This document shows, piece by piece, positions 3,192 to 17,845 of a stretch of 20,000 nt of DNA; position 1 is the first letter of the stretch, and every line of letters starts with the position of its first letter. The stretch spans positions 49,471 to 69,470 of the IMG/VR virus record IMGVR_UViG_3300009873_000013. One strand, written 5' to 3'. The notes under the pieces were generated by a model. That model made no database searches. It was not told the origin of the DNA and worked only from the letters and a program-made list of their open reading frames with translations. Origin of the DNA: an uncultured virus (IMG/VR IMGVR_UViG_3300009873_000013). Lineage: Duplodnaviria > Heunggongvirae > Uroviricota > Caudoviricetes. The position numbers were made by a program, and so were the translations under genes.

Positions 3192-3202
3192 GGACGCACG
3201 CC

Positions 3203-4350: not shown

Positions 4351-4559
4351 GCGATCGCCAGTTCCCCCCGATCAACTTCAACATTGTGCAGCCCGAGCCG
4401 GGCGAGTTCCGCGAGCTCCGCTCCATCCTGCCCGAGACCGAGCAGGCGCACACCGCCGCGGTCGAAGAGCTCTACCGCCAAGAACAAGCGGCCCAGGAAG
4501 AGGCCGCCCGTCGTCGGGCCCGGATGCCCAGGAAACGCCAACCCGGGAGAAAACCATGA
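4347..4559 (+). CDS. Hypothetical protein (70 aa)
   Basis: Start MSDRQFPP at the ATGA overlap 4347-4350; stop overlaps the next ATG. Confidence 0.65.
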   Translation: MSDRQFPPINFNIVQPEPGEFRELRSILPETEQAHTAAVEELYRQEQAAQEEAARRRARMPRKRQPGRKP

Positions 4560-4795
4560 CAGGTGCCGAACAAGTCGTCCGCCAGCTCGGTCGCTTGGAC
4601 ACAGCGCTCTCGCAGATCAACGCCGCCGACGTCCTGGCCGAGCTCAGTATCGAGAAGCGGAAGGAAACCCTCGCCACGCTCGACGCCCTGGCGGCCAAGA
4701 TCGCCAGCACCCACCGCCGCATCATCGCCACGATCCCGACCGAAGAACCGGCCGTCGCCGAGCAACCAACGCCAGCCGGCTCGCCGGTGGACTAA
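4556..4795 (+). CDS. Hypothetical helical/coiled-coil protein (79 aa)
   Basis: GGAG SD, ATGA coupling. Confidence 0.65.
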   Translation: MTGAEQVVRQLGRLDTALSQINAADVLAELSIEKRKETLATLDALAAKIASTHRRIIATIPTEEPAVAEQPTPAGSPVD

Positions 4796-4846
4796 TCGGC
4801 CGATCAGTGGCTACAAAGTAGCCCACCCCCAACTCGAGGAGCCACC

Positions 4847-5506
4847 ATGCTCACCCGACGCTCTCTCCTGCAGGCCGGCGCCGCGGTGCTCGCCCTGCCG
4901 GCCACCCTGCTGGGCAAGACCAGTCGCAATCAGATCTCCTACAACGACTCGACCGGCGCCCTCGACCTCGCCACGGTCGGCGAGTTCCACCCGCCTCGCG
5001 CGCCGTTCGAAGTCGGCGTCACCGACTGCTCGGAGTACCTCTTCGACACGAAGACTGGCGACGTCTTGTTCCCGCTCTATCGCGAAGAAGGGACGCCGCC
5101 GCTTCTCACGCGCGACACGGCTGCCTACATCTTCAACATGATGAAGAACCGCGGCCTGGAGGTCCCGTACTTCTGCACGCCGATGCACAAGGTTCTAGCA
5201 ACGGGACGGGACGTCGGTAACGCCAAGGACGAACTGGCCCGCCTGCAAAACGTCAAAGCCGAGGCGTACGGCTTTCGACCCATGACCGACATGGAGTTCG
5301 TGCAGTACCACGGTCTCCTCGAGGTCGCCCGTCGACGGGAAGCGTTTTACGAAGAGTGGATCGAACACCGGGCGATCTACGACCTTGCCAACGGCCTACT
5401 CGTCCTCTTCGACAAGACCAACTGGCGGATCGCCTTCGCGCTCCTCGTGCCGAAGGAGCCCGCGCGCACGCTGATCACCCGTTGCCTCTACATCCAAGAC
5501 CATTGA
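4847..5506 (+). CDS. Hypothetical protein with Tat-like signal (TRRSLL + hydrophobic stretch)
   Basis: GAGGAG SD; MLTRRSLLQAGAAVLALPATLLG. Confidence 0.75.
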   Translation: MLTRRSLLQAGAAVLALPATLLGKTSRNQISYNDSTGALDLATVGEFHPPRAPFEVGVTDCSEYLFDTKTGDVLFPLYREEGTPPLLTRDTAAYIFNMMKNRGLEVPYFCTPMHKVLATGRDVGNAKDELARLQNVKAEAYGFRPMTDMEFVQYHGLLEVARRREAFYEEWIEHRAIYDLANGLLVLFDKTNWRIAFALLVPKEPARTLITRCLYIQDH

Positions 5507-5532
5507 CAGCCCCGGGGCTATCGACATAGACT
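5503..5532 (+). promoter_or_regulatory. sigma70-like promoter
   Basis: TTGACA (5503-5508), 18 nt spacer, TAGACT (5527-5532). Confidence 0.6.
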
Positions 5533-5581
5533 CCCGCCCAAGGAGCCTGGGCGATCTCAAGCGCGGCCGCCCACGCGCCCC

Positions 5582-5643
5582 GCCGCTCTGTGCACGACGC
5601 CGCCCCGAAACGACGTCGCCGCACTCCAGAGAGCGGCTTTTTT
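5582..5643 (+). terminator. Intrinsic terminator-like structure closing a short non-coding transcript
   Basis: GCCGCTCT (5582-5589) pairs with AGAGCGGC (5630-5637), followed by T6; large internal region. Confidence 0.55.
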
Positions 5644-5658
5644 CTTGCGCCCGTCCGC

Positions 5659-5686
5659 TTGACTCGCCTGACAGCACCGGTATTAT
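5659..5686 (+). promoter_or_regulatory. sigma70-like promoter
   Basis: TTGACT (5659-5664), 16 nt spacer, TATTAT (5681-5686). Confidence 0.55.
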
Positions 5687-5719
5687 CACGGCGTGCGCTG
5701 GCGACAGCGTGCCTCGAAC

Positions 5720-5768
5720 AGGAGAGGCGGGCCGAGTGCCTCTACGCTCACCGGCCCGCTTCTTTTTT
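5720..5768 (+). terminator. Intrinsic terminator/attenuator in the leader of the 5798 gene
   Basis: GCGGGCCG...CGGCCCGC stem followed by TTCTTTTTT. Confidence 0.6.
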
Positions 5769-5772
5769 GCGC

Positions 5773-5796
5773 TCACCACGCCGGCTGGAGTCTCAC
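5773..5796 (+). repeat. Bipartite RBS motif copy 1 (TCACCA...GGAGTCTCAC)
   Basis: TCACCA 5773-5778; GGAGTCTCAC 5787-5796; GTG 5798. Confidence 0.85.
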
Positions 5797-5797
5797 C

Positions 5798-6097
5798 GTG
5801 GCCAGCAACTTTGACGAGCACGGCTGCCACATCGCCAACGACAAAGAGTTCTACTTCCAGTGCTCCCTCTCCCGCCGCCGCGACGACGGCACCATCATCG
5901 TCCAGGTCGCCTGGATTCCCGCCAAATTCGCCGAAGCCGGTCGCGTCCTCAAAATCAAAGCCACCGACGGCTCCTGGGTCGACGGCTGGACCGTCACTAG
6001 CGTCGGCGCCGGCATGGTCGGCGTCCCCGACGTCCGCAAAGGCCGCCGCCAACACCGCAAACAAACAGGCGACAGCCTGCCCAAGGAGAGAAAATGA
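5798..6097 (+). CDS. Hypothetical protein (99 aa)
   Basis: GTG start after GGAG within the motif; in frame with ORF 5693..6097; ATGA overlap with the next gene. Confidence 0.7.
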   Translation: MASNFDEHGCHIANDKEFYFQCSLSRRRDDGTIIVQVAWIPAKFAEAGRVLKIKATDGSWVDGWTVTSVGAGMVGVPDVRKGRRQHRKQTGDSLPKERK

Positions 6098-6300
6098 TCT
6101 CGAGACGCTCGCTCCTCGCCGCCCTCCCCTTCTGCGGCTGGCTCAAGCCGGCGCCCGTCGACGGTCTCGCCGACAAAGTCGAGTCGTGGATGGGCGAAGC
6201 ACGTAGGTTCGACGAAGTTTGGGCCTTCCTCGACCAGTTCCAACACCGCGTCGGACTCATCGAGCCGCCCATCTACGGCAACAACCCTCACGCCACGTAG
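6094..6300 (+). CDS. Small protein with Tat-like N-terminus (SRRSLL)
   Basis: AAGGAG SD; MISRRSLLAALPFCGWL. Confidence 0.65.
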   Translation: MISRRSLLAALPFCGWLKPAPVDGLADKVESWMGEARRFDEVWAFLDQFQHRVGLIEPPIYGNNPHAT

Positions 6301-6587
6301 AAGCACGACCGAACCGACGGCTCGCGCGGCGATCGCTTCTCACCGGCCGCCATCTTGCGCAGGTCCACATCGCGATCGAGCAGACCGCCGCACGCACTGC
6401 ACCGTGGCGCCGAACCACGCGTCGATGAAAACAGGTGCCGCAGCGTGGGCTCCTTCGCCCCACAGTCCCGGCACGTCGCCATCCCAGGACCACGCCGACG
6501 CCCACCCTTCCGCCGCTTCTTGTGCTTCCGCTTCCGCGGACCACCGTGCGGCTTGTGATAGCTCGCGTGCTGAATCTTCCCCATCAT
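6288..6587 (-). CDS. Basic Zn-ribbon protein (CRDC...CSAC)
   Basis: MMGKIQH..., K/R-rich tract and two CxxC pairs; start position uncertain. Confidence 0.55.
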   Translation of the reverse strand: MMGKIQHASYHKPHGGPRKRKHKKRRKGGRRRGPGMATCRDCGAKEPTLRHLFSSTRGSAPRCSACGGLLDRDVDLRKMAAGEKRSPREPSVRSCFYVA

Positions 6588-7261
6588 GCCACCCAAAATT
6601 TCTCGACCGGCCATAACCCCTTTGTTGTTGCAGACGACGACTCGCAAGATAGCACGCCGCCCGCCCACCGACGACAAAAATTCCGTTGACGACGTTCGCC
6701 AAGAATCCTAATCTCACCTCCCGCCGACCTGACGGTGGGCCGGCTCACAGCCCCAACCCGTGGCAACGACGAAACACCGTCAGCCGTTCCTGTTCGGGTG
6801 TAGGCGGACAAGACGTCACGCGCGACGTACTCCGCCGTGCCAGAGAAAAGCCCCAGCGAGCTCGGGCCTGGCGTGTAATAAACCGTAAAGTGCACTCCCT
6901 GGAACCGGCCGATCGCTCCTTCTTTTACTAAGCGGTCGTGCGCGCCTGCCTCTCTACCGGTCAACTCGACCAAAGCGCTCGACATCAACGTCAATGCGCC
7001 CGCTTTCGTGACACCCTTCTCACTCCCGCCCAGACTCGAACACCCTCCAGACCACCCATCTCCACGACCACCAGCGCGAAAAAAATCTTCGCGGGGAACG
7101 TAATCACGGTCGAGGGGGGGCCGACGGGGCCTCCCGGTGGTCGATCGGTCCACGCAACGTGTTGCGGCCTATAGTCTTGCGTTGCGTCGACCGAACGGGG
7201 GTAGAAATGGCACGTTTGGCACACCATTTGCGAATGCATGCGGCCGCTATTCACCCCATCA

Positions 7262-7596
7262 TGTGGCCACGTGTGACGCGTAGGCGTGGCATCGTCCAGC
7301 AAGCGCGGTCTGCGGCCGAGTCGAGACCGCGGCGCGATCTATCCAGTCGCCACACGAGTAACGCTATTGAGTCGACACCATAGTGGCGCTTGCGTGGCGT
7401 GGCGTATGTCGTGGCATGGTAGGCGCTTGTGTGGGGTGATGCGTGGCGTAGGCGTGGCACGTGGTCAACGCGCGCCGTCTGCGCGATTCCCGAAAACCAA
7501 GTGTCCAAATTGGACCGCGGCCGGATTCTTTGGGCTACGTTCTATCGGCGTGACAGCGCCGGAGTTATCGGCGTGGCGTTGTGCTGTCACGTGGTC
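7262..7596 (+). repeat. Cluster of (C)GTGG(C/T) short direct repeats, including 2x GCGTAGGCGTGGCA
   Basis: About ten GTGGC/GTGGT cores between 7262 and 7596; the 14-mer is at 7277 and 7446; no credible ORF. Confidence 0.55.
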
Positions 7597-7672
7597 CTGG
7601 TCGAATTGACCGACGGCGGATGATTGAACTCGGCGGACGGTTTCCGATACGGTATCTGGGACCGTTTCACGT

Positions 7673-7695
7673 TTCACCCGTTTGCGGAGTCTCAC
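7673..7695 (+). repeat. Bipartite RBS motif copy 2
   Basis: TTCACC 7673-7678; GGAGTCTCAC 7686-7695; ATG 7699. Confidence 0.85.
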
Positions 7696-7698
7696 ACC

Positions 7699-8217
7699 AT
7701 GGCAGCGACGACAACTTTTCAGCTCACGACCGATACGACGATCGACGATGCGGCCGGCGCGTTGCGCGCTGGTCTCGTGCCGCTTGAAGCGTTCCTGGAA
7801 TGGCAGGCAGGCTACGTGAAGCGCCAGTCTGCGGCATCTGGCCGAGTGCGCGTCACGGTCTCGCCGAAGGGCATGATCGTACTCAATGGCGTGGTCGGCA
7901 AAGGCGAAGGATTCGCGCCCAATTTCACGCCGCGCGTTCTGGCCGATCTTCTGGACAACGCGGACGCCTTGATCGGTGCCGTTGTCGAGAATGCAGACAA
8001 GTCGCACGCGGCGGACGCCACGGTCAAGGATCTGAACCCCGCGTGGAAAAAGGCGAAGGATTCCAAGGCGAGCGAAGAGCAGCTCGCGAAGATCCCCAAG
8101 CTGGTCCCCGTGGCGCATCCGCGGGCAGGCAAGCCGGTGCTGAAGTACGGTAGCGCGGCGGAGCTGGCCGAGACCGTGAAGCGCCTTCAGGCGATTCGCG
8201 CCAAGCTGGTCGGCTAA
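7699..8217 (+). CDS. Hypothetical protein (172 aa, A/K-rich)
   Basis: ATG 7699 after the motif RBS; in frame with ORF 7624..8217. Confidence 0.8.
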   Translation: MAATTTFQLTTDTTIDDAAGALRAGLVPLEAFLEWQAGYVKRQSAASGRVRVTVSPKGMIVLNGVVGKGEGFAPNFTPRVLADLLDNADALIGAVVENADKSHAADATVKDLNPAWKKAKDSKASEEQLAKIPKLVPVAHPRAGKPVLKYGSAAELAETVKRLQAIRAKLVG

Positions 8218-8223
8218 CGCGGT

Positions 8224-8285
8224 CCGCACAACGCGCCGTGTGCCGCGCGAGTCTCCGCGGTCACCATCGCACGGCGCGCTTGCGG
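8224..8285 (+). promoter_or_regulatory. Intergenic RNA structure displaying GAGTCTC (loop) and TCACCA (bulge)
   Basis: CGCGCCGTGTG 8232-8242 pairs with CGCACGGCGCG 8268-8278; inner CCGCG/CGCGG stem with loop CGAGTCTC 8248-8255; TCACCAT 8261-8267 unpaired. Confidence 0.6.
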
Positions 8286-8297
8286 TTTGCGTTTCTC

Positions 8298-8319
8298 TTC
8301 ACCACGATAGGAGTCTCAC
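8298..8319 (+). repeat. Bipartite RBS motif copy 3
   Basis: TTCACCA 8298-8304; GGAGTCTCAC 8310-8319; ATG 8321. Confidence 0.9.
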
Positions 8320-8320
8320 C

Positions 8321-8575
8321 ATGAAACTGCGCTGGCGGAAGGTGTTCGACGGCTGCTGGCATGGGTTTGCCGAAGGTAACCCGAATGCCGTGGCCGAAGT
8401 CGAACAGTTCCCCTACGGACGGAAGCTGTGGTCAGCGGAGATCTGCGGCTACGGGCGTCTGACGTGGGGCTCTTACGGTCTGTTCACGTTTCGGGAAGCG
8501 AAGGCACTCTGCGAGCGCAGGCTGCCGGAGTTCTATCCCGCTGTCACCACGAAGGAGTCTCACCCATGCGACTGA
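8321..8575 (+). CDS. Hypothetical phage protein (84 aa)
   Basis: MKLRWRKV...TFREAKALCERRL; motif RBS upstream. Confidence 0.75.
   Translation: MKLRWRKVFDGCWHGFAEGNPNAVAEVEQFPYGRKLWSAEICGYGRLTWGSYGLFTFREAKALCERRLPEFYPAVTTKESHPCD
8544..8563 (+). repeat. Bipartite RBS motif copy 4 (inside the 3' end of the upstream gene)
   Basis: TCACCA 8544-8549; GGAGTCTCAC 8554-8563; ATG 8566. Confidence 0.9.
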
Positions 8576-9252
8576 GCGAGAAGTACCGGCCCAAGACGCT
8601 GGAAAGTGTCGTGGGTCAACCGTGCGTCGTGCCGCTGCGGCGATTCGTCGAGCGGCCCTACGCCTGCTGTCTGTTGTTCGAGGGACCGCCAGGCTGCGGC
8701 AAGACCACGTCGGCCCTGGCACTGGCGGCCGAGTTGGGTTGCCTCGACGAACTGTCGGGGCTGCACGTGGTCACCAGCACCGAGCTGACGATCGACCGCT
8801 GTCGTGACCTGTTCGAGAGCACGTTGCGACTGAAACCCATGCTGGGCGACGGCTGGCGGGTGCTGGTCGTCGAGGAACTAGAGGCGCTGACCAGTGTGCA
8901 GGTGCAGCGGTTCCTCAAGGTGGCGCTCGAGCAGCGCTTGCCGGACCGATGCGTCGTGGTGGCCACGTCGAACGGCGCCGGGGCCATCCAGAAGGCCGAC
9001 AAGGCGCTGCTGCAGCGGTTTCGTATCTACCGCTTCGAGGCCGGCAAGATGTTCGCTGCTGCGGCCGAGGGCTACCTGGCCGACGTGTGGCAGCGTGAGA
9101 CCGGCCAGGATCGTTTGCCGGTCGGCTGGCGGACGTGGGGCACCGACGGCGACGGCGAGTTCTCGCTGCGAGTGGCGCTCGATCGGCTGCAATGCGAAGC
9201 CGAACTGTGCGACGTGCGAGAGCACGGTCCCGCGGCGAGGTGCGTGGCATGA
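8566..9252 (+). CDS. Clamp-loader-clade AAA+ ATPase (RFC small subunit/DnaX/RarA-like)
   Basis: N-terminal 'LSEKYRPKTLESVVGQ', Walker A GPPGCGKT, Walker B VLVVEE, sensor-1 ATSN, 'ALLQRF' Arg finger; 228 aa, lacks a collar domain. Confidence 0.85.
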   Translation: MRLSEKYRPKTLESVVGQPCVVPLRRFVERPYACCLLFEGPPGCGKTTSALALAAELGCLDELSGLHVVTSTELTIDRCRDLFESTLRLKPMLGDGWRVLVVEELEALTSVQVQRFLKVALEQRLPDRCVVVATSNGAGAIQKADKALLQRFRIYRFEAGKMFAAAAEGYLADVWQRETGQDRLPVGWRTWGTDGDGEFSLRVALDRLQCEAELCDVREHGPAARCVA

Positions 9253-9683
9253 TCCACACGAAGCTACCACGCACGACCGGTCGAAGGCCCACAGCCCGAC
9301 GCGTCGATGCTGCTGAGAAGCATCTGGCGCAAGAGCGTGATCGGTACGCGCTGTTCGCCGAAGAGGTCGCGGCAGAGCAGCCAACGGCGGTCGAGCGCGT
9401 GGAGGGCTTCGACGCCGGCTTCGAAGCATGGTGGCAGGAGCATCGCTTGAAACATGCCCAACTGTGGCGCAAGGCTCGAGCGTTGTTCCATGCCTTGCCT
9501 ACCGAGCAGCGTCGTGCCGCCGACTCGTACTGGCGACGCCGGGTCTACCCGCTGGATCCGATCTACCTGATCGCTCTTGTACGACGGATCGCCGACGGGA
9601 GCTTCGACGTCGTGAAAGAGGATGCCGAGATCGATCGACTACGCCGACTCGGCGAAGCCCACAGAAAGGGGATTGTGCCTTGA
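9249..9683 (+). CDS. Hypothetical protein (144 aa)
   Basis: ATGA overlap with the ATPase gene; MIHTKLPRTTG... Confidence 0.7.
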   Translation: MIHTKLPRTTGRRPTARRVDAAEKHLAQERDRYALFAEEVAAEQPTAVERVEGFDAGFEAWWQEHRLKHAQLWRKARALFHALPTEQRRAADSYWRRRVYPLDPIYLIALVRRIADGSFDVVKEDAEIDRLRRLGEAHRKGIVP

Positions 9684-9838
9684 GTGACGACACTTTCACG
9701 CTGAAGAACGATCCGCCGCGGCCGAAGCCGTGGCGTGCTGAAGATGAACCGTGCCGCCAGCGCGTGCTCCTCGAGGGGCTCGACTGCTGCGCCGGCCAAC
9801 TGAACCTATTCGAGGAGGAACCAAGTGATGGCTCGTAG
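9680..9838 (+). CDS. Small acidic protein with QLNLF putative beta-clamp-binding motif
   Basis: TTG start overlapping the previous stop (TTGA), AAAGGGG upstream; ...AGQLNLFEEE... Confidence 0.55.
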   Translation: MSDDTFTLKNDPPRPKPWRAEDEPCRQRVLLEGLDCCAGQLNLFEEEPSDGS

Positions 9839-10133
9839 GTCGAACGCGGATGTCTGGGCTGACTCCATGCTGCGTCAAATCAGGTCTCAGCTTTGGACTG
9901 TTTGCTCTGACACAAAGCCCAAATCCAAGAAGCTCGTGGAGCGGCTCGAACGCGCCTATACCCAGGCAAACTTCGATCCAGACATCGAGTGCCCGGAGGG
10001 CTCATGGTCGCTTGACCAGGCCGAAGTTCTCGACGCGATCAGGCGGCTGATCTGCAGTGAGCGTGACCTGCCGATCCTGACGCATGACGAAATCGAAGCC
10101 AAGTATCGACAGGAGGACCAACGCGATGAGTAA
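9828..10133 (+). CDS. Hypothetical protein (101 aa)
   Basis: GAGGAGG SD upstream of ATG 9828. Confidence 0.7.
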   Translation: MARRSNADVWADSMLRQIRSQLWTVCSDTKPKSKKLVERLERAYTQANFDPDIECPEGSWSLDQAEVLDAIRRLICSERDLPILTHDEIEAKYRQEDQRDE

Positions 10134-10521
10134 CCACACACCGGGACCGTGGCAGGTTCTCGACAGGGACCTCGGCGTAAATGGAGGGCGAGGGCTCTAC
10201 ATCGTCAGTGAGCGTGAAGTCACGCCGACGCTGGCCAAAATTCGAGACGTTGGCAGCGCGACCGAGGCGAATGCGCGGTTGTTCGCATGGGCGCCTGAAC
10301 TGCTGCAGGCGTGCGACTGGGCGGACACGGCGTTCGCCGTGCTGAACCTTGGCGGCGACGAGATCACGCCCCAGGCACGTGCAGAGATGCGTGATGCGTG
10401 GGCGCTGGTCAACCACGCCATGGCGAGGGCCAAGGGACGCGACGATCCGTTCGCCGAGGTCAACCCGGAAGTCTCGAAGGCCGCGATCGAGAAGGCCCGG
10501 CGCGAGATGTCGGGCGCCTGA
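10126..10521 (+). CDS. Phage 'HTPGPW' family hypothetical protein
   Basis: MSNHTPGPW ... EANARLFAWAPELLQAC, the common phage pattern 'HTPGPW...ANARLIAAAPELL'; AGGAGG SD. Confidence 0.8.
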   Translation: MSNHTPGPWQVLDRDLGVNGGRGLYIVSEREVTPTLAKIRDVGSATEANARLFAWAPELLQACDWADTAFAVLNLGGDEITPQARAEMRDAWALVNHAMARAKGRDDPFAEVNPEVSKAAIEKARREMSGA

Positions 10522-10543
10522 GTCACAACCGAGGGGCAACCTA

Positions 10544-10564
10544 TTCACCACAAGGAGTCTCACG
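10544..10564 (+). repeat. Bipartite RBS motif copy 5
   Basis: TTCACCA 10544-10550; GGAGTCTCACG 10554-10564; ATG 10565. Confidence 0.9.
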
Positions 10565-11128
10565 ATGGCGAAACAGAAGTCACTCTATCACCGGCCCGTG
10601 CCGGCCATCCTGGTCCGCGTCGAGAAGCCGAACCGCATGTACGGCGGCTGCGATTGCTTCCACGTCTACGGCCGCTTCGTGATCTACGACTCGTCGAAAC
10701 GCGAGGACGTCACGTTCGTCCACAAGTACGGCGACAAGTGGCCGCCCAAGGAAGACCTCGACCTGGAAGATCTCTTCGTCTGGTCGCAGGGGGATACGGA
10801 TGCCGAGCCCGATCGGACCCGGCTCTATGGCTGGGAGCTCCGCTACAAGCGCTACTCCTGCACGCTCTCGGACGTCGAGCGGATGCACAGCACGCTCAAG
10901 TTCCTCGATCGCGGCCTCGATCGCGAGATTGCGCGGACTGGTCATCCGCAGACGTTCGGCGCCTGGATGTGTTACGTGGCCCTGGCGTCGAAGGCCGAAG
11001 GGTTCGTGTTCGAAGGGGAGCACGGCTACTCGATCCTGACGCCCGGCGAGTCGATCCGCCGCATCGACAACCTGACCTACGAGCAGTTCCGTTGCAACCA
11101 GCGTAAGGCCGAAGAAGCGGCCGCTTAA
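10565..11128 (+). CDS. Hypothetical protein (187 aa)
   Basis: ATG 10565 after the motif RBS; in frame with ORF 10349..11128. Confidence 0.8.
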   Translation: MAKQKSLYHRPVPAILVRVEKPNRMYGGCDCFHVYGRFVIYDSSKREDVTFVHKYGDKWPPKEDLDLEDLFVWSQGDTDAEPDRTRLYGWELRYKRYSCTLSDVERMHSTLKFLDRGLDREIARTGHPQTFGAWMCYVALASKAEGFVFEGEHGYSILTPGESIRRIDNLTYEQFRCNQRKAEEAAA

Positions 11129-11140
11129 CGTCCACACGTA

Positions 11141-11187
11141 GCCCGCGAAGCGCGTCACCGGGATTCGCCTCCCGGCGCGGGCCTTTT
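11141..11187 (+). terminator. Intrinsic terminator-like branched hairpin
   Basis: GCCCGCG 11141-11147 pairs with CGCGGGC 11176-11182; CCGGGA/TCCCGG inner stem; TTTT 11184-11187. Confidence 0.55.
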
Positions 11188-11190
11188 CCG

Positions 11191-11218
11191 TTGCATCGGG
11201 CGACGGTGTCGCTATAAC
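11191..11218 (+). promoter_or_regulatory. sigma70-like promoter for the methyltransferase-helicase module
   Basis: TTGCAT (11191-11196), 16 nt spacer, TATAAC (11213-11218). Confidence 0.5.
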
Positions 11219-11242
11219 TCGACAACTAAGGAGCTATCTCGC

Positions 11243-12250
11243 ATGCGCCACGCAGGACGCATGAAGGGCGGGTTCTACCCCGCGCCTTCGGACGCCGTTG
11301 CGCTCGCACTGCGCCATCTACGGCCGCCGAGCGAGCCAGACGCCCCCTTTGCCATCCTCGACCCGTGCGCCGGCGAGGGCGAGGCGATCGGCCAGTTGGC
11401 CGATGGTCTCGGCTGCCGGCCTGACTTGGTCCACGCGATCGAGCTCGAGTCGAGTCGAGCGGAGAAGTGCCGCCAGCGCTTGCCCGAAGCGCAGCTTCTC
11501 GCGCCGGCCAGTTACTTCGGTTGTCGCATTCGCAGTTGGTCCTTCTCGCTCGTGTGGTGCAATCCACCCTTCGACGACGAGATCGGCGGCGGCGAACGCG
11601 TCGAGGGTCAGTTCTTGGGTTCGGCCCTGGCGCTCCTGGCGCCCAAGGGCATCCTCTGTCTGGTCTGCCCTGAGCGGGTCTGGCGCGACGGCGCGATCCG
11701 CCGCGTGCTCTTGACCTGGTTCGACGACGTCTCGTGCGTCGAGTTCCCCGCGGACTGCCGGCGGTTCGGCGAGGTGATCGTATTCGGCATCAAGCGCCGT
11801 GAGATGACCAACCCGGACAAGCGGACTTGGGGCGACCTGGTCACTGGTCGGACGGAGTACACGCTGCCGAAGAGCAACGGGCCGCGTGGTCTGTGGCGGA
11901 AGATCGAGCTCACTCCCGAAGAGCTCGACACAGCGTTCGCTCAGTCACCGCTGCGACGGATGCTCGAGCCACCACCCGAGCGACCTCTACCGCGTCCGCC
12001 GATGGCGTTGGGCAAGGGACACCTGGCGTTGCTCCTGGCCTCGGGGCACCTCGACGGGCTGGTCTGCCCGCCGGGCGAACCACCGCACGTCGTCCGCGGC
12101 ACGGCCAAGAAGGTCGAAGAGGTGACCGACGTCGAAGAGGACGAGAGCAAGGGGACGCGGACCACCAAGACCACCTACACCGAGCGGATCACGTTGACCG
12201 TTCGGGCCGTCGGCGCCGATGGCGTGATCCACACGTTTGCTCAGGAGTAA
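11243..12250 (+). CDS. DUF6094-like class I SAM-dependent (N6-adenine-type) DNA methyltransferase
   Basis: 'GFYPAP', motif I 'LDPCAGEG', motif IV 'NPPF', C-terminal 'PPMALGKGHLALLLASGHLDGLV' typical of this family; AAGGAG SD. Confidence 0.85.
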   Translation: MRHAGRMKGGFYPAPSDAVALALRHLRPPSEPDAPFAILDPCAGEGEAIGQLADGLGCRPDLVHAIELESSRAEKCRQRLPEAQLLAPASYFGCRIRSWSFSLVWCNPPFDDEIGGGERVEGQFLGSALALLAPKGILCLVCPERVWRDGAIRRVLLTWFDDVSCVEFPADCRRFGEVIVFGIKRREMTNPDKRTWGDLVTGRTEYTLPKSNGPRGLWRKIELTPEELDTAFAQSPLRRMLEPPPERPLPRPPMALGKGHLALLLASGHLDGLVCPPGEPPHVVRGTAKKVEEVTDVEEDESKGTRTTKTTYTERITLTVRAVGADGVIHTFAQE

Positions 12251-12254
12251 CCCC

Positions 12255-12815
12255 ATGATCGACGGACCACGAGCAGTCGTCACGATCGGCGAGCAGTGTT
12301 ACACGCTGCACCTGGACGCCGTGGCGATCCAGGACACATCGCAATACAGCCAGCCGATCCAGATTCTCTCGGTCGCCGGCCCAGCCACCAGCGTCAAGGC
12401 AGTGACGGCCGGCTTCCAGACCAACCGCGCTGGCGTGTCGCAGGTGACGTTTCACGACGTCGAGGGACGCAAGCCGTTCCGCGGACACCGCGGCTACGAG
12501 CCCTACAACTGCTACAAGCACCGCCTGGGCCTCGACACGTGGCATCTGGTGGTCATCAGCACCGACCAGAACCTGCTGCTGACCGTCAGCGACGAGGCGA
12601 TCTGGCGGCACCTCACGAGCGATCGCTACACGACGCCGCTCTTACGGACCTGGATGCCGTGGCTGGTATCCGAGCTCCGCGAGAAGGGGCACGTGCGAGA
12701 GCACCAGTGCGTCAACTGCCAGACAGCGCACCTCTACCTCACTGAAGGCAAGCTCGACGAGATCGTGTCGTTGGGCATCAACCGCGGCGAGCTGCGCATG
12801 GAAGCCGCCGCCTAA
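12255..12815 (+). CDS. Hypothetical protein of the methyltransferase-helicase module
   Basis: AGGAG SD; contains 'TTPLLRTW'; located between the DUF6094-like gene and the helicase. Confidence 0.75.
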   Translation: MIDGPRAVVTIGEQCYTLHLDAVAIQDTSQYSQPIQILSVAGPATSVKAVTAGFQTNRAGVSQVTFHDVEGRKPFRGHRGYEPYNCYKHRLGLDTWHLVVISTDQNLLLTVSDEAIWRHLTSDRYTTPLLRTWMPWLVSELREKGHVREHQCVNCQTAHLYLTEGKLDEIVSLGINRGELRMEAAA

Positions 12816-12834
12816 CTACCGAAGGGTCAAACGC

Positions 12835-13497
12835 ATGAAGAAACGCTTTCGAGCGGTCGACCTGTTCTGTGGTGCCGGTGGCACCACGACCGGGGCGATC
12901 CAGTCTGGCCACGTTGAGGTTGTGGCCGCGATCAATCACTGGCGCGTGGCCTGCCTCAACCACGGGCCAGGTCATGTCGTCGTGCCCTGGATCTACCAGA
13001 TCATGGGCCGCGGCGCCGGTCGTCACATTCCGCCAGAGCAACCACTGCCGACGATCATCGCGCAACGCAACTGTTTCGGAGTCGTGGCGCCGTTCTTGAT
13101 CGATGTTCACAACAGGCGTCGCGACGATACGACGACCAGCGTCGACGATCCGATGCCGACGATCGTGACGAAGCCTGGCAACTCAGTCTGCCTGCCGTTC
13201 ATCACGAAGTACAACTCGAACGGCGGCGCTGAGTCGGTCGAACAGCCACTCTCGACGGTGACCACGAAGCACCGCCACGGCCTGGCGATCGTGCACCTGA
13301 TCGAGACCATGAACGAACTGGGGATCGCCGACATCGGCTTCCGCATGCTCGACGTCGATGAGCTCGCGGCCGCCCAAGGTTTCCCTGTCGGCTACGACTT
13401 GCACGGCAGCAAGGCTGAGCAAATCAAGCAAGTCGGCAACAGTGTCCACACGGCCGTCGCTCGTGCGCTCTGTGAAGCGATCGCGACCGCGGACTGA
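12835..13497 (+). CDS. C5 cytosine methyltransferase homolog lacking the catalytic core (in-frame internal deletion; possibly a pseudogene)
   Basis: Motif I DLFCGAGG, motif IX RMLDVDELAAAQGFP and motif X QIKQVGNSV are present; no catalytic (S)PxC/PC and no ENV motif; three 'xPL/MxTI/V' repeats. Confidence 0.8.
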   Translation: MKKRFRAVDLFCGAGGTTTGAIQSGHVEVVAAINHWRVACLNHGPGHVVVPWIYQIMGRGAGRHIPPEQPLPTIIAQRNCFGVVAPFLIDVHNRRRDDTTTSVDDPMPTIVTKPGNSVCLPFITKYNSNGGAESVEQPLSTVTTKHRHGLAIVHLIETMNELGIADIGFRMLDVDELAAAQGFPVGYDLHGSKAEQIKQVGNSVHTAVARALCEAIATAD

Positions 13498-13509
13498 AAG
13501 GAGACCACC

Positions 13510-13761
13510 ATGCCCAAGACTGAGTGCCGCCATTGCGTCGAGTGCGAAGGGATGTCACACCACTGGATCGACAACCCCGACTTCGGCAACGACGAAGCGC
13601 CGGAAGAGTCGCGCAAGTGGCCGGTCGTCTGCAAACACTGCGAGACGTTCGGTGACGAGTGCTGGGAGTGCCACGGCACAGGAACGGAATACGAGAGCAG
13701 CTTACACGACGACGAAGTCGAAGAGTGCCCAACCTGCGGAGGAGAAGGTTACATCCAGTGA
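13510..13761 (+). CDS. Small Cys-rich Zn-finger protein (DnaJ-like CxxCxGxG repeats)
   Basis: CVECEG, CKHC, CWECHGTG, CPTCGGEG; AAGGAG SD. Confidence 0.75.
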   Translation: MPKTECRHCVECEGMSHHWIDNPDFGNDEAPEESRKWPVVCKHCETFGDECWECHGTGTEYESSLHDDEVEECPTCGGEGYIQ

Positions 13762-13778
13762 CCGACCGATCAATCGTT

Positions 13779-13796
13779 TTCACCACACGGAGTCTC
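13779..13796 (+). repeat. Bipartite RBS motif copy 6
   Basis: TTCACCA 13779-13785; GGAGTCTC 13789-13796; ATG 13799. Confidence 0.85.
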
Positions 13797-13798
13797 TG

Positions 13799-15943
13799 AT
13801 GCTCGAAGAAATCACCAACCTGGAGGGCTACATGGCCCGCTACGGCACGCTCCTCGGCGAGCAAGCCCAAGCGGCCGTGCATCCCTTACACGTGCCGGGG
13901 AAACATCCGCCGGCGGGCGTCATCAGTCTGCGCGAGCCGTTTGAAGCGCAGGCCCACGTCATCGCCGCGTCCACCAAAGGCCTCGGCGAGCACAAGTCGC
14001 TCACGATCTGCGGAGAGTGCGGCGTGGGCAAGACGCTCTGCGGCATGCTCACCGTCGACAACCACGCCGGCGTGAAGCCCTACCGAGCGCTCGTGTTCTG
14101 CCCGCCCCACCTGGTCGGCAAGTGGAAGCGCGAACTCGAAGAGACGATCCCCGCCTGTCAGGCCACGATCATCGACGACTATCGCCAGGTCACCCGACAC
14201 AACTGGCGGCAGAAGCCGACCCTGCCCGAATGGTGGATCGTCTCGAACAACCGGGCCAAGCTCGGCGCCAAGTGGCGTTCCTCTTACACGACGCGTCCCA
14301 CGCCGCCTGGCGTGGCCTTCTGCACCCACTGCGATCACCCGGTCTTGAAGAAGGACAGCGAGACCCAACAGCTCGTGCCCATGCCGCTCGAGGAGCTCGA
14401 CAAGAAGCGGCTCTTCTGCGAGGAGTGCGGCAGTGCCCTGTGGACTTACACCCACGATCTCGATCGCTGGCCCGTGGCCACCTACATCCACAAGCACCTC
14501 AAGGGCGTGTTCCGCTACCTGATCGTCGACGAATGCCACGAAGAGAAGGGCGAGGACACCGCTCAGGCCAACGCGATGGGCTCGCTGGCCTCGGCCTGTC
14601 GCTACGTGATCGCCATGACCGGCACGCTGATCGGCGGCTACGCCGACCATTTGCGGACGCTCCGGTTTCGCCTCTCGCCGACGTCGCTGGTCGAGGAGGG
14701 CTTCGGCTGGTCCGACCGGATGCCGTTCAACGAGCGCTACGGCCGCATCGAACGCAAGGTGACCACGAAGGAGGACCTGGGCAGCGGCAAGACCAACCGC
14801 CAAAGCCGCGGGTCGAGCCAGCGGACGGTGAAGTACGTCCGCCCGGGCATCGTGCCCACGTTCTTCGGTCGTCACCTGATGGGCAACACGGTCTTCCTGG
14901 GCCTCGAGGAAGTGGCCGACAACCTGCCGTCGCTGACCGAAGAGGTCGTGCCGGTCGCCATGGACTCGGAGCAACGGTCCGAGTATCGGCGGATCGAGGA
15001 GCTGCTGACCGCGGCGCTCAAGCAAATGGTCGCCAAAGGGGACAAGCGGCTCCTGGGCGCCATGCTGCAGACGCTCCTGTGCTACTGCGACAAGCCGTAC
15101 GGCTGGGGCGAGATCGGCTACTACGAAAACAGCGACGACAGCGACGCTCGTGTGTGGGTCCCCGTCGTCGAACCAGCCAATCTCGACGCCGATCTGCTGC
15201 GGCCCAAGGAGGCCGAGCTCGTGCGGCTCATCTCGGCCGAGAAGCGGGAGAACCGCCAGACCTGGCTCTTCACGACGATGACCGACAAGCGCGACGTGAC
15301 CGAGCGGATGCAAGTCCTGCTCGAGCAAGCCGGCATCAGCTCGACGATCTTGCGGGCCAACGTCGAGACGAAGAAGCGCGAGGACTGGATCGCCAAGCAC
15401 GGCCCCGAGCACGACTGCATCATCAGCCATCCGCAGTTGATCCAGACCGGCATCGATCTGTTCGACAAGAAGGGCAACTACAACTTCCCGACGATTGTCT
15501 GGTATCTGACCGGCTACAACCTCTTCACCTTGCGGCAGGCCAGCCGGCGAGCCTGGCGGATCGGCCAGCAGCAGCCGTGCAAGGTGCTCTACCTCTACTA
15601 CGAAGAGACCATGCAGGCCCGGGCCATGACGCTGATGGGCACGAAGCTCACGGCGGCCGAGGCGATCGAGGGCAAGTTCTCGGCCGAAGGACTGGCGGCC
15701 ATGGCCGGCACCGAGGGCTCGATGGAAATGGCCCTGGCCCGCTCGCTCGTGAATCAGCTCGACGACTTGGACGCGTCGCGCTGCTGGAAGAAGGTCGGCG
15801 CCAAGGCCTCGCCGGCCCCAGCCATGCCCCAGGCACGCCCCGAGCCGTCGCTCGTGCGGCGTCCGCTGCGGCCCAAGAAGCAGGCCCCGCCCAAACCAGT
15901 GTTCCAGCAAATGTCCCTGTTCGATGACTTGGCGGTCGCGTGA
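13799..15943 (+). CDS. SF2 (SNF2/DEAD-like) helicase with Zn-ribbon insertion (714 aa)
   Basis: Walker A GECGVGKT, DECH, motif III MTGT, 'TGIDL', motif VI QASRRAWRIGQ; CTHC...CEEC insertion; start ATG 13799 at the motif RBS. Confidence 0.9.
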   Translation: MLEEITNLEGYMARYGTLLGEQAQAAVHPLHVPGKHPPAGVISLREPFEAQAHVIAASTKGLGEHKSLTICGECGVGKTLCGMLTVDNHAGVKPYRALVFCPPHLVGKWKRELEETIPACQATIIDDYRQVTRHNWRQKPTLPEWWIVSNNRAKLGAKWRSSYTTRPTPPGVAFCTHCDHPVLKKDSETQQLVPMPLEELDKKRLFCEECGSALWTYTHDLDRWPVATYIHKHLKGVFRYLIVDECHEEKGEDTAQANAMGSLASACRYVIAMTGTLIGGYADHLRTLRFRLSPTSLVEEGFGWSDRMPFNERYGRIERKVTTKEDLGSGKTNRQSRGSSQRTVKYVRPGIVPTFFGRHLMGNTVFLGLEEVADNLPSLTEEVVPVAMDSEQRSEYRRIEELLTAALKQMVAKGDKRLLGAMLQTLLCYCDKPYGWGEIGYYENSDDSDARVWVPVVEPANLDADLLRPKEAELVRLISAEKRENRQTWLFTTMTDKRDVTERMQVLLEQAGISSTILRANVETKKREDWIAKHGPEHDCIISHPQLIQTGIDLFDKKGNYNFPTIVWYLTGYNLFTLRQASRRAWRIGQQQPCKVLYLYYEETMQARAMTLMGTKLTAAEAIEGKFSAEGLAAMAGTEGSMEMALARSLVNQLDDLDASRCWKKVGAKASPAPAMPQARPEPSLVRRPLRPKKQAPPKPVFQQMSLFDDLAVA

Positions 15944-15949
15944 GCGGCC

Positions 15950-15955
15950 TATAAT
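15950..15955 (+). promoter_or_regulatory. -10 box of the sRNA/recombinase promoter
   Basis: Perfect TATAAT 7 nt before the first base of the RNA stem; -35 box not clear. Confidence 0.6.
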
Positions 15956-15962
15956 CAGTTGC

Positions 15963-16054
15963 GAGCGGCCAGCCGGCTAGCGTTGGTGAAGCGCGAATAG
16001 CCCGGGGTGTGACGTGAGACTCCACCTCGGGACTCGCCGGCTGGCCGCTCTTTT
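15963..16054 (+). ncRNA. Candidate c4/CI-like antisense small RNA (three-way junction, two guide arms)
   Basis: Perfect 15-bp closing stem (15963-15977 with 16036-16050) followed by TTTT; arm 1 carries TGGTGAA (15984-15990); arm 2 (CCCGGGGTG/CACCTCGGG) carries GTGAGACTCC (16014-16023); both are complementary to the 7-copy RBS motif. Confidence 0.8.
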
Positions 16055-16073
16055 CACCACACGAGGAGTCTCA
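16053..16073 (+). repeat. Bipartite RBS motif copy 7 (cis target directly after the sRNA)
   Basis: TTCACCA 16053-16059; GGAGTCTCA 16065-16073; ATG 16076. Confidence 0.9.
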
Positions 16074-16075
16074 AG

Positions 16076-16933
16076 ATGCCACGACGAGCGAAGAAGGAAC
16101 GTACCGGCCCCTTCTACTTCTACGGCTACTGCCGCGTCAGCCACGAGAAGTCGACCCAGCAGGGAACCTCGATCGACGCACAGATCGCACAGATCATCCG
16201 CCTGCACGATTACCGCCGAGACCAGGGCAAACTGGAAGGCGTCGAGTGGGGGCCTGTCGGCTGGTGGGGCGAGAAGCAAGAGGGCGAAGAGTCGAGCGAC
16301 GGGTTCTTCGTCGACCAGTCGGTGAGCGCTTTCAAGGTGGAACTGGGAGCGCGGCCGGCCGGCCGACGTCTCAACGCCATCTTGCAGCCAGGCGATCACA
16401 TCGCTTTCGCCTACGCCGATCGCGCCGTCCGCTCGATCCGCGACTTCTCGCTGACGATCCACCGCTGGATCGAACGCGGCGTCCGCGTGCACTTCGTCAC
16501 GCCCGACGTCGATCCCACGACGCCCTACGGACTGGCGTTCCTGCAGATGAGCGTGGTCTTCGCCGAGCTCGACAGCCGCTTGAAGAGCCAACGGATCAAG
16601 GACACGTTCGAACAGATGCGGGCCGTCGGCAAGCCGACCAGTGGCGGCCCGAATTACGGCTGGAAGAAGGTCCCGGGCAGCAACGAATGGATTCCCGACC
16701 TCGAGGAGCGGGCCCTGATCGATCAGATGATCTATTGGCGGGACGTCGAAGGCCGAGGCTGGTGCGAGATCGAGGACATGATCGAAGAGCTGCAGGCCCA
16801 GCGCGACGGTCGCAAGCCCTACCCGCGCAACTCGTGCGACCCCAAACGCAAGCGGCGTTACACCCACGAGCAGGTCCGCAAGGCCATCCAACGCTCGGCC
16901 GAGTGGCGGAACAAAGTGCCGGCCGAGGCCTAG
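16076..16933 (+). CDS. Serine recombinase (resolvase/invertase catalytic domain plus short recombinase-like C-terminal domain)
   Basis: YGYCRVS (catalytic Ser), SIDAQ, SAF...RP, DRAVRS, 'FAELDSRLKSQRIKD', 'GGPNYGW'; 285 aa. Confidence 0.9.
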   Translation: MPRRAKKERTGPFYFYGYCRVSHEKSTQQGTSIDAQIAQIIRLHDYRRDQGKLEGVEWGPVGWWGEKQEGEESSDGFFVDQSVSAFKVELGARPAGRRLNAILQPGDHIAFAYADRAVRSIRDFSLTIHRWIERGVRVHFVTPDVDPTTPYGLAFLQMSVVFAELDSRLKSQRIKDTFEQMRAVGKPTSGGPNYGWKKVPGSNEWIPDLEERALIDQMIYWRDVEGRGWCEIEDMIEELQAQRDGRKPYPRNSCDPKRKRRYTHEQVRKAIQRSAEWRNKVPAEA

Positions 16934-17109
16934 CCGGCTTGCCGCTGCACGTCCACCACGGCATCGACCGGGTCGCTGTTGACGGCCGAGAAGCGTTCGT
17001 TGCCCACGGTCCAGCTACAGACCCATAGGTCGGTGTCCTCATCCCAGCAGAGCGAGAACGCCTCGCCGTTGGTTTTCATCTGGCGGATCATCCGCTCGAG
17101 ACCATCCAT
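16930..17109 (-). CDS. Hypothetical protein (59 aa)
   Basis: Hand-translated MDGLERMIRQMKTNGEAFSLCWDEDTDLWVCSWTVGNERFSAVNSDPVDAVVDVQRQAG*; GGAG SD; the stop shares CTAG with the recombinase stop. Confidence 0.6.
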   Translation of the reverse strand: MDGLERMIRQMKTNGEAFSLCWDEDTDLWVCSWTVGNERFSAVNSDPVDAVVDVQRQAG

Positions 17110-17139
17110 GCCGGCGTCTCCATCACAGGCCGGTATGTG

Positions 17140-17433
17140 CTACTTCTGCGCTCCCCAGATGAGCGTCACGATGGACGTCACCAAGGCCCCGATCACCGAG
17201 ACCACCGCCGCCGCGATGCTGCCCTTGATCGTCCGCTCGGTCTGCTTCATGTCCTTCACGGTCCGCTCCACGCGATCGAGCCGGGTGTTGATCCCCACCC
17301 GATGCGACGAGCCGTCGCCGTAGATCGACGTGTCGTGGCACTCGAGCCGCTCGAGCGCGTCGTCGAACTTCGTCTCCATCCGGGTCAGACGTGTGAGAAT
17401 CTGACCAAGCTGTTCGCTGTCGGTCGGCGACAT
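17140..17433 (-). CDS. Coiled-coil protein with C-terminal TM helix (XhlA/holin-like)
   Basis: 'LTRLTRMETKFD...RLDRVE' followed by hydrophobic IAAAVVSVIGALVTSIVTLIW; GGAG SD. Confidence 0.6.
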   Translation of the reverse strand: MSPTDSEQLGQILTRLTRMETKFDDALERLECHDTSIYGDGSSHRVGINTRLDRVERTVKDMKQTERTIKGSIAAAVVSVIGALVTSIVTLIWGAQK

Positions 17434-17494
17434 CCATCGGCTCCTGGCTGCTGGTCCGTCATGGCGATCAGGCGCAGGAGGAGCGAGCCGGTGA

Positions 17495-17845
17495 TCAGGC
17501 CGGGATTCCGCCCAGGAACAAGGGCAAAAGCTGCTTGATCGCCTCGACGATCAGTGGAATGATCCGCTCGAGAAAGTCGGCGAACCCTTCCCAATCGCGA
17601 CCGTCCGGCGGCACCATCTCGACGTCGATCGTCTGATAGGCGGCGTTGAGCAAGTTGTTGTCGCCCATGCCCGACCAGATCGCATCGCGATCCTCTGCGG
17701 ACAGGTCGGACTTACGGAGCTGACGCCACAGGGCGATCTTCAAGAACGGCTCAGCCAAACGGAAGTCGACAGGCTGTGGCAGGTCGCGACGTCGGCGACG
17801 GAAGAGCAAGCCACTCGGTTGAACGGCGGCAGAGGCGGTGCACAT
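17495..17845 (-). CDS. Hypothetical protein with amphipathic C-terminal helix
   Basis: AAGGA SD; C-terminus DWEGFADFLERIIPLIVEAIKQLLPLF. Confidence 0.65.
   Translation of the reverse strand: MCTASAAVQPSGLLFRRRRRDLPQPVDFRLAEPFLKIALWRQLRKSDLSAEDRDAIWSGMGDNNLLNAAYQTIDVEMVPPDGRDWEGFADFLERIIPLIVEAIKQLLPLFLGGIPA

Follow-up and report, generated by a model that had tools for sequence, protein, structure and literature searches.

Why do seven genes of one phage carry the same two short sequence boxes directly in front of their start codons, and what might read these boxes? The question arises from the final 20 kb (positions 49,471-69,470) of the 69,470-bp viral record IMGVR_UViG_3300009873_000013. 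This 20-kb stretch, analysed as a whole, is called the window here, and positions are window positions unless the genome is named. The seven genes stand in the plus-strand arm of the genome (window 2384-16933). We propose that the boxes surround the Shine-Dalgarno (SD) core of each gene as a tag at the mRNA level. As a candidate mechanism, which we put forward tentatively, a phage antisense RNA of about 92 nucleotides (nt) would use this tag to control the seven genes together.

The downstream half of the motif is the 10-mer GGAGTCTCAC. An earlier note on this DNA had placed it at 5787, 7686, 8310, 8554 and 10554; all five sites are exact and on the plus strand, and a sixth exact copy lies on the minus strand (16014-16023). 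Six occurrences compare with 0.03 expected (mean of 200 dinucleotide shuffles, none of which reached six), which bears out the rarity given by that note (about 0.02 expected). The two weaker matches it listed are present as well, 13789 (GGAGTCTCTG) with two mismatches and 16065 (GGAGTCTCAA) with one. Because sites with up to two mismatches are not enriched as a class (14 found vs 25.3 expected), these two copies count by context alone, and it is the exact copies and the bipartite form that carry the signal. The latter, TCACC-n(3-10)-GGAGTCTC, has seven matches in the window, which are exactly the seven copies, all on the plus strand; 0.01 are expected and 0 of 200 shuffles reached seven.

In the alignment of the seven copies, TCACC and GGAGTCTC are the invariant columns, and the stretch between the boxes differs in length and sequence in every copy; measured from TTCACCA to GGAG it spans 3-8 nt, as had been stated. 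Boxes that stay invariant while the spacer varies point to selection on two separate boxes, not to copied cassettes. It is accordingly highly improbable that the motif lacks a regulatory role and is a portable ribosome-site cassette which recombination or gene conversion has distributed among gene boundaries (a mosaic joint). Most tagged genes lack a detectable family and the same genome has a second conserved start cassette, as such spreading might produce; but copying would carry spacer and flanks along with the boxes, and the antisense element described below would be left unexplained.

Copies 1 to 7 have 1, 3, 1, 2, 1, 0 and 1 nt, respectively, between the end of the 10-mer and the start codon. 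The range of 1-3 nt claimed before thus holds for six copies, whereas copy 6 directly abuts its start. GGAG, an ordinary SD core, falls 6-9 nt from the start codon, which is normal spacing, and both its flanks are free of G. Copy 4 is indeed located inside a coding sequence: it occupies the last codons at the 3´ end of the open reading frame (ORF) 8321-8575 (protein end ...AVTTKESHPCD*), 244 nt after copy 3. The internal gene that starts there needs a ribosome site, not a promoter. All copies are confined to genome 55.2-65.5 kb (10.3 kb), and none is found at structural or minus-strand genes, in agreement with the earlier note. A scan of all 69,470 bp, which that note had called for, gave no further copy with start context; the only other site with at most one mismatch is at position 6337 on the minus strand, away from any start. 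All seven tagged genes are non-structural. Four have no assigned function, and the others encode an AAA+ clamp-loader-like ATPase (copy 4), an SNF2 helicase (copy 6) and a serine recombinase (copy 7). Position, strand, the in-gene copy and the free spacer are read most economically as a start-associated, mRNA-level tag on ribosome sites. The core GAGTCTC occurs 10 times genome-wide, 8 of them in the window; the eighth (8247-8256) is in sense orientation, has no start codon and lies inside the hairpin upstream of copy 3.

Coordinates of the motif copies, of the candidate antisense element and of further features (window positions unless marked as genome)
Feature	Position	Strand	Context
Copy 1, TCACCAC-gccggct-GGAGTCTCAC	5773-5796	+	GTG 5798, 99-aa protein, no family
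Copy 2, TCACCcg-tttgc-GGAGTCTCAC	7674-7695	+	ATG 7699, 172-aa protein, no family
Copy 3, TCACCAC-gata-GGAGTCTCAC	8299-8319	+	ATG 8321, 84-aa protein
Copy 4, TCACCAC-gaa-GGAGTCTCAC	8544-8563	+	ATG 8566, 228-aa AAA+ clamp-loader-like ATPase
Copy 5, TCACCAC-aa-GGAGTCTCAC	10545-10563	+	ATG 10565, 187-aa protein, no family
Copy 6, TCACCAC-ac-GGAGTCTCtg	13780-13798	+	ATG 13799, 714-aa SNF2-type helicase
Copy 7, TCACCAC-acga-GGAGTCTCAa	16054-16074	+	ATG 16076, 285-aa small serine recombinase
TATAAT box	15950-15955	+	7 nt after helicase stop, 7-8 nt before base of folded element
Candidate 92-nt RNA	15963-16054	+	15-bp outer stem, then UUUU; encloses two inner hairpins
Loop 1, GGUGA	15985-15989	+	complement of box 1 UCACC; predicted unpaired probability 0.99-1.0
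Loop 2 and start of its stem	16013-16023	+	GUGAGACUCC (16014-16023), exact complement of GGAGUCUCAC
Two sigma-70-like promoter matches, TTGACA-18-TAGACT and TTGACT-16-TATTAT	5503-5686	+	promoter scan; head of motif-bearing arm
Terminator-like hairpin and U6 run	5721-5771	+	directly before copy 1
Hairpin, then U-rich tract	7635-7665	+	directly before copy 2
Long hairpin, then U-rich tract	8218-8290	+	before copy 3; includes GAGTCTC core at 8249
ACAACTAAGGAG(Y)T(A/T)T sites	genome 10543, 15562, 15843, 19562, 21120, 41840, 48958	-	at most 1 mismatch
ACAACTAAGGAG(Y)T(A/T)T site	6628	-	at most 1 mismatch
ACAACTAAGGAG(Y)T(A/T)T sites	11222; genome 3037	+	at most 1 mismatch

A repeat of this kind could also be a DNA operator of the "stoperator" type, at which a phage protein blocks transcription and whose GGAG lets the site double as an SD sequence. 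Cluster A stoperators, as described in passages of PMC9262239, are asymmetric sites of 13-14 bp, present in many copies, in short intergenic regions and in one orientation to transcription, and the motif shares this asymmetry, placement and single orientation. Its core, GAG-T-CTC, is a near-palindrome, one exact copy exists in the other orientation, and the phage encodes helix-turn-helix (HTH) and ribbon-helix-helix (RHH) regulators. However, stoperators are DNA sites for a repressor, spread genome-wide with an operator over the early promoter among them, and in no SD register, whereas here every copy supplies the SD sequence and keeps 0-3 nt to the start (7/7), which an operator would not require. 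The copies are limited to one 10-kb arm of a 69-kb genome, and none overlaps the promoter matches at 5503-5686. The reverse copy does not form a valid bipartite site either. When the element that contains it is read on the minus strand, the boxes come in swapped order, 24 nt apart, and it is for this reason not simply an eighth motif site inverted; the G-U pairs of the element, moreover, suit RNA, not DNA. We regard an operator as unlikely.

Still less probable, in our opinion, is the idea that the motif forms all or part of a start signal for transcription specific to this phage, whether as promoter or as initial transcribed sequence, which would be needed after upstream terminator-like hairpins. 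A hairpin with U-run stands immediately before four of the seven copies (1, 2, 3 and 7; copies 4, 5 and 6 have none) and leaves no room for a classical promoter, and related phages possess lineage-specific repeated upstream motifs (loci L127 and L200, see below). The same hairpins can equally be leaky terminators or processing or stability elements. Against a transcription signal, the motif ends so close to the start codon that a start site downstream of it would remove that codon, the spacing between its boxes is variable where that of a promoter is rigid, and copy 4 sits inside a gene shortly after copy 3. No -35/-10 match was found, the scan detects no promoter at any copy, and no RNA polymerase or sigma factor is present among the 66 ORFs scanned (29 + 37).

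The earlier note had itself raised the case that the motif is simply the general extended SD sequence of the host. GGAG at SD spacing would agree with it, but this reading is already contradicted, and we give it next to no probability. About 70 other genes of this phage have plain GGAG, AGGA or GAGG with flanks unrelated to the motif. In two Pirellulales genomes with the closest relatives of the phage, the 3´ tail of 16S rRNA is canonical (GGATCACCTCCTTTCT); (A)GGAG alone pairs with it, and neither UCUCAC nor UCACCAC extends the pairing. Among 401 Planctomycetota genomes, the group to which the phage's own host probably belongs, judged by relatives, the bipartite pattern has 24 matches in 21 genomes with a maximum of two per genome, and a reversed control pattern has 8 (hand count). 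Because the motif is at chance level there, it is very unlikely to represent a host extended SD. Near position 1138, the 16S rRNA of two Pirellulales genomes (L291, L292) contains GTGAGACT, an 8-nt complement of AGTCTCAC. Pairing with this internal site was considered and dismissed as within chance (estimate about 0.07); to our knowledge, this region of 16S rRNA has no known contact with mRNA.

What, then, could read boxes that the 16S tail does not read? A cognate antisense element had been announced by the earlier note, and it exists. A perfect 15-bp inverted repeat (15964-15978 / 16036-16050), with TTTT after it, is found in the gap that separates the helicase stop (15943) from the recombinase start (16076). 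The predicted fold of 15963-16054 has a minimum free energy of -60.9 kcal/mol (z -7.1 vs 300 dinucleotide shuffles), and a wider stretch of 147 nt around it gives z -4.06. Each box complement stands at the tip of its own hairpin, in a separate apical loop, and both belong to one folded element, a better placement than the earlier note could recognise. In loop 2 (GUGAGACUC), positions 16014-16020 have predicted unpaired probabilities of 0.52-1.0; GUGAGAC is in the loop and is followed by UCC of the stem. The stretch 16014-16023 is intergenic and is the sole exact reverse copy in the genome. Each of the inner hairpins contains one G-U pair, valid in plus-strand RNA only and a mismatch on the other strand. 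TATAAT occurs twice on the plus strand of the 69-kb genome and never on the minus strand.

We suggest the following course of events. GGAG of the tag would serve as the SD core, flanked by two specificity boxes, UCACC(AC) upstream and UCUC(AC) in the spacer between SD and start, which the 16S tail could not read. Their most likely partner would be the RNA of about 92 nt from 15963-16054, between the helicase and recombinase genes. It might originate from its own TATAAT promoter, from the terminated 3´ end of the helicase transcript, or from both. In its predicted fold, a closed three-way structure, the two apical loops present GGUGA and (U)GACGUGAGACUC, which would pair with box 1 and GGAGUCUCAC, respectively, and this pairing would cover the SD and the spacer as far as the start codon. 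The outcome would be joint repression of translation of all seven genes, whether to shut them off late or to give an immunity of lysogeny type, comparable to the action of the C4 antisense RNA of phage P1. Transcription of the element, pairing in vivo and repression as the direction of the effect are steps that we infer; if they take place, the phage may switch the seven tagged genes together at translation. Antisense control appears to us the single most likely reading, because complementarity in two loops, TATAAT and the U-run together are hard to call chance, yet its probability falls somewhat short of even.

The relatives of the phage, compared as 151 related loci, show how such signals vary between lineages. 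The exact 10-mer is absent from all of them. A scan of viral contigs for TCACCAC-n(2-8)-GGAGTCTC found dispersed multiple copies on no contig among the 80 loci listed, from at least 118 matching stretches, and hence no relative with the same motif; 79 of these loci have a single match and one (L069) has two, 30 nt apart. The most similar motif among relatives belongs to a 37.9-kb contig of a Pirellulales metagenome-assembled genome (L200, helicase 48% identical). There, TTTCAc-CCCAACTCTCAC, which resembles TTTCACCAC...GTCTCAC of the phage studied here, is present in 14 copies in the locus (e.g. 2348-17685) and 17 on the contig. Their orientation is uniform, and they stand 13-30 nt ahead of starts with a separate SD in between. 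The contig shares with the window orthologues of the helicase and of the DUF6094 methyltransferase only, and the helicase is tagged in both phages. It also harbors about 21 copies of CTGGCACTGTTAA, again in one orientation and often right after stop codons. Another locus (L131, 1884-20735) has 9-10 copies of the 22-nt palindrome GGGTGGTGGATTTCCACCACCC placed 10-25 nt before SDs, and L127 (912-18353) has seven sigma-70-like promoters, TTGCAC-17-TGTGCTATAtT, followed by SDs of AGGAGTC type. In L196 and L197, the closest relatives, the helicase is likewise followed by a large hairpin/terminator and then by the serine recombinase. The recombinase start region of L196, TTTTGAACCAC-GGAGTGTTCCC-ATG, resembles that of the phage studied here; the other genes of both loci show a loose GGAG(C/T)T preference only.

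Several points weigh against an antisense RNA. Firstly, the TATAAT at 15950 has a poor -35 region and does not appear in the list of the promoter scan, and the only match in a search of sequencing runs is DNA from an activated-sludge metagenome, the probable source, with no RNA run among the matches. Secondly, the loops run in the same 5´-3´ order as the boxes. One continuous duplex is thus impossible, and two separate loop contacts have to be assumed. Thirdly, predicted duplexes of the loop-2 region are stronger with the seven tagged starts (-15.6 to -24.3 kcal/mol) than with 19 others (-4.9 to -13.8 kcal/mol), but this contrast follows from the complementarity that is built in and is not independent evidence. 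The coincidence probabilities are rough and were worked out after the fact: about 0.08 for an exact reverse 10-mer anywhere in the genome, about 0.1 for GGTGA within 50 nt of it, and about 0.002 for TATAAT within 70 nt upstream. Further, the element is also well explained as a terminator or insulator of the helicase operon. Because L196 and L197 carry a hairpin at the same place with no evident anti-motif, the hairpin between helicase and recombinase may be primarily a terminator. The repeated motif of L200 has no reverse copy on its contig. The last point comes from the start-associated sequences (SAS) of cluster K mycobacteriophages, to which the earlier note aptly likened the motif. The 12 SAS cores of TM4 and the 17 of Pixie (K2 and K3) are all forward, with no reverse copy, and the single reverse copy of ZoeJ is an ordinary SAS, five bases before the leftward gene 40. 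Motifs of this type evidently need no antisense partner, since K2/K3 phages lack such a reverse copy.

It is in this light that a motif acting on mRNA with no antisense RNA involved has to be considered, and we give it a limited but real chance. Such a motif could be recognised by an RNA-binding protein of the phage or the host, or could form an unstructured ribosome site of intrinsic strength. T4 RegA and Mu Com are translational regulators, and T4 RegB is a site-specific endoribonuclease that cuts GGAG; the T4 proteins act on translation initiation regions of early genes, at loosely defined sites. A protein partner might resemble RegA or Com as a translational repressor or activator, or RegB as an endoribonuclease. 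In the intrinsic form, the G-free U/C/A tracts around GGAG would constitute a standby site. The evidence from position and strand is the same as for antisense control, and G-free flanks on both sides, the K2/K3 phages that keep SAS and the second start motif of the same genome, which has no structured antisense partner, all suit this explanation. So does a gene that closely precedes copy 6 and encodes a zinc-ribbon protein of 83 aa with four cysteines. On the other hand, an intrinsic enhancer has no need for exact identity over 8-10 nt across seven genes with a free spacer between the boxes. No RNA-binding family was detected among the proteins of the plus-strand arm, nor was any homologue of RegA or RegB. 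Three features of 15950-16054, namely loops that complement both boxes, a TATAAT and a U-run, would have to be coincidences. The earlier note had seen in the variable spacer a sign of RNA-RNA pairing and not of a protein. The spacer does argue for two separately recognised boxes, but taken alone it does not exclude a protein.

The zinc-ribbon protein (13510-13761, with CxxC pairs) is encoded between methyltransferase genes and the tagged helicase and gives weak matches to Anti-TRAP and DnaJ-CXXCXGXG (E 1e-3 and 3e-5). It is conceivable as a candidate nucleic-acid-binding regulator. The 15-bp inverted repeat was also considered as an attP site or an invertible segment for the recombinase. We judge this less likely for two reasons: in L196, helicase, hairpin and recombinase remain adjacent to one another within a bacterial contig of 137 kb, and arms only 57 bp apart would be very close for an invertase. 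Three aligned sequencing runs returned only the source contig and short unrelated fragments, with no inversion joints at 15963-16050. The whole window has no Rfam match at the gathering threshold, the phage C4 family included; with E up to 10, the region 15900-16120 gives chance-level matches only (best E 0.04, a microRNA model), and a tRNA scan found nothing.

Besides the bipartite tag, the genome contains a second start-associated motif, ACAACTAAGGAG(Y)T(A/T)T, which had escaped the earlier note; the stereotyped ribosome sites of the phage thus form at least two families. This second motif has 11 sites with at most one mismatch, mostly before minus-strand genes, and several of them lie 8-9 nt before the start (e.g. 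of the genes ending at genome 41820 and 19542). The site at 11222 precedes the DUF6094 methyltransferase gene, which starts at 11243. The reverse copy at genome 3037, in a 60-nt gap between minus-strand genes, has no significant fold (z +0.4 to +1.3).

The complete record has a direct terminal repeat of 144 bp and a G+C content of 65%. Megablast of window 5000-17000 against GenBank phages gave no match. Minus-strand genes occupy 1.2-51.9 kb of the genome and include those for an S8 protease, methyltransferases, RusA, DnaC- and DnaD-like loaders, RecT, RecE, the RHH and HTH regulators, tail, head and portal proteins and the large terminase. Products of the plus-strand arm are mostly of no assigned function; those assigned are the AAA+ clamp-loader-like ATPase, two methyltransferases, the zinc-ribbon protein, the SNF2 helicase and the 285-aa serine recombinase. 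After the arm comes a short block on the minus strand that includes a holin-like gene. Relatives of the helicase number in the hundreds (50-76% identity), and many of them are on contigs of 66-70 kb; one, about 76% identical, is represented only by protein P0002 on a 7.8-kb contig. A scan of viral contigs with the helicase as a single protein found no relative. Its closest named relatives (58% identity) are in Pirellulales genomes and further close ones in Gemmataceae and other Planctomycetia; because of these, the host is probably a planctomycete (Planctomycetota).

At the head of the motif-bearing arm, a strong hairpin with U6 comes no more than about 35 nt after the two promoter matches, just before copy 1. 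The region 5503-5771 looks like a short terminated leader or attenuator, and this arrangement suggests that antitermination or leaky termination governs entry into the plus-strand arm. The arm is otherwise tightly packed with genes, and two stretches, 6300-7700 (about 1.35 kb) and 9264-9825 (about 0.56 kb), have no frame with a coding-type signal in the G+C content of third codon positions (GC3). Neither has an Rfam or tRNA match; an origin, non-coding RNAs or decayed genes are possible contents. A minus-strand ORF at 6288-6677 is very basic (GC3 0.75), the basic stretch coming after an internal ATG that begins MAGREILGG....

Among known systems, the proposed mechanism recalls the C4 RNA of phages P1 and P7. 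The C4 RNA uses two short exposed sequences and, like the RNA predicted here, is a small structured phage RNA within the transcription unit of its target (the immI operon). It pairs with the ribosome-binding region and blocks the downstream genes (Citron and Schuster 1990, as cited in passages of PMC8198154). The element shares the exposure of a complement of the ribosome-binding region in loops (predicted unpaired probability 0.5-1.0) and may have signals of its own, TATAAT 7-8 nt upstream with a weak -35 and a 15-bp stem with UUUU. In contrast, C4 acts on one target region and the tag is found on seven dispersed genes, and the element has no Rfam match.

The motif itself has its counterpart in the SAS of cluster K. 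According to passages of Pope et al. 2011 (PMC3203893), SAS are 13-bp sequences with 11-19 copies in a single orientation; they stand 3-7 bp ahead of starts in the non-structural arm and are conserved beyond pairing with 16S rRNA. Their partner is an ESAS of about 50 bp (PMC3203893), now read as a SigA-like promoter with an inverted repeat, and reports from 2024 and 2025 still call the role of SAS unknown (PMC11373665, PMC12699233). Both motifs are short asymmetric repeats with a GGAG core, in one orientation, a few nt from start codons and in the non-structural arm only. Both are conserved past the positions that pair with 16S rRNA and have a lone copy in opposite orientation that is not at a gene start. 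SAS are absent or at chance level in host genomes, and the same may hold for the motif, judged by genomes of the presumed host group. They differ in sequence, the SAS consensus being GGGATAGGAGCCC, with up to 2 deviations, and the motif TCACC-n-GGAGTCTCAC, so there is no membership. SAS belong to phages of Actinobacteria and the motif to an unrelated, Planctomycetota-associated phage; the latter has 7 copies against 11-19, and its upstream partner is a box of 5-7 nt at a distance of 3-10 nt instead of an ESAS of about 50 bp. The resemblance is an analogy, not homology.

The analogy extends to a hairpin. In Anaya (cluster K1), an orphan reverse SAS is situated on the transcribed strand of a 385-nt gap between genes 96 and 97. 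It occupies the apical loop CCUCCUAUCC (10-11 nt) of a hairpin (record 59,849-59,899; L293 29850-29900), and 161 nt around it fold with z -4.0. The 61-nt hairpin region matches 124 mycobacteriophage records with 60-100% identity. We aligned 10 of these (L293 and its homologues L294-L302), which span the range of identity and are close relatives. The 11-nt loop is invariant in 10/10, 99.4% of 158 cells are paired, and compensatory changes are found in 2/16 pairs; these and the G-U changes affect the 10-bp outer stem. Many pairs are G-U, valid on the plus strand only. The covariation score of 0.201 compares with 0.167 in shuffles and was reached by 10/500 of them. Support for a conserved anti-SAS hairpin in K1 is thus moderate, as it comes from close relatives and from 10 of 124 records. 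Some annotations put a hypothetical protein across this hairpin. A literature search, which covered few subscription journals and did not extend to the 2019 ZoeJ paper, found no small or antisense RNA linked to SAS; "SAS" and "small RNA" co-occur in a single, unrelated paper only.

Taken together, we suggest as a speculative extension, with a modest chance of being right, that start-associated sequences serve as addresses for antisense stem-loop RNAs that phages encode. Two unrelated lineages, the Planctomycetota-associated phage and subcluster K1, share a lone reverse copy of the tag in the apical loop of an intergenic hairpin of the transcribed strand, which is strongly folded in the former and conserved in the latter. 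In both, the RNA of this hairpin would base-pair with the ribosome site of every tagged gene and may switch a non-structural gene set at translation. As K1 phages are genetically tractable and RNA-seq data exist for them, the idea of an SAS-directed RNA is testable soon. For the phage studied here the prediction is simple: one small RNA, seven targets and compensatory mutations. If it is true, SAS, unexplained since 2011, would gain a testable mechanism; a shared ribosome-site tag would provide compact post-transcriptional control of a gene set, and also a portable design for synthetic co-regulation. Even if the RNA proves irrelevant, this is, as far as we have searched, the first SAS-like system outside phages of Actinobacteria. 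The window presents what appears to be the SAS phenomenon, which arose independently in a phage whose probable host belongs to a distant phylum, together with a concrete candidate partner.

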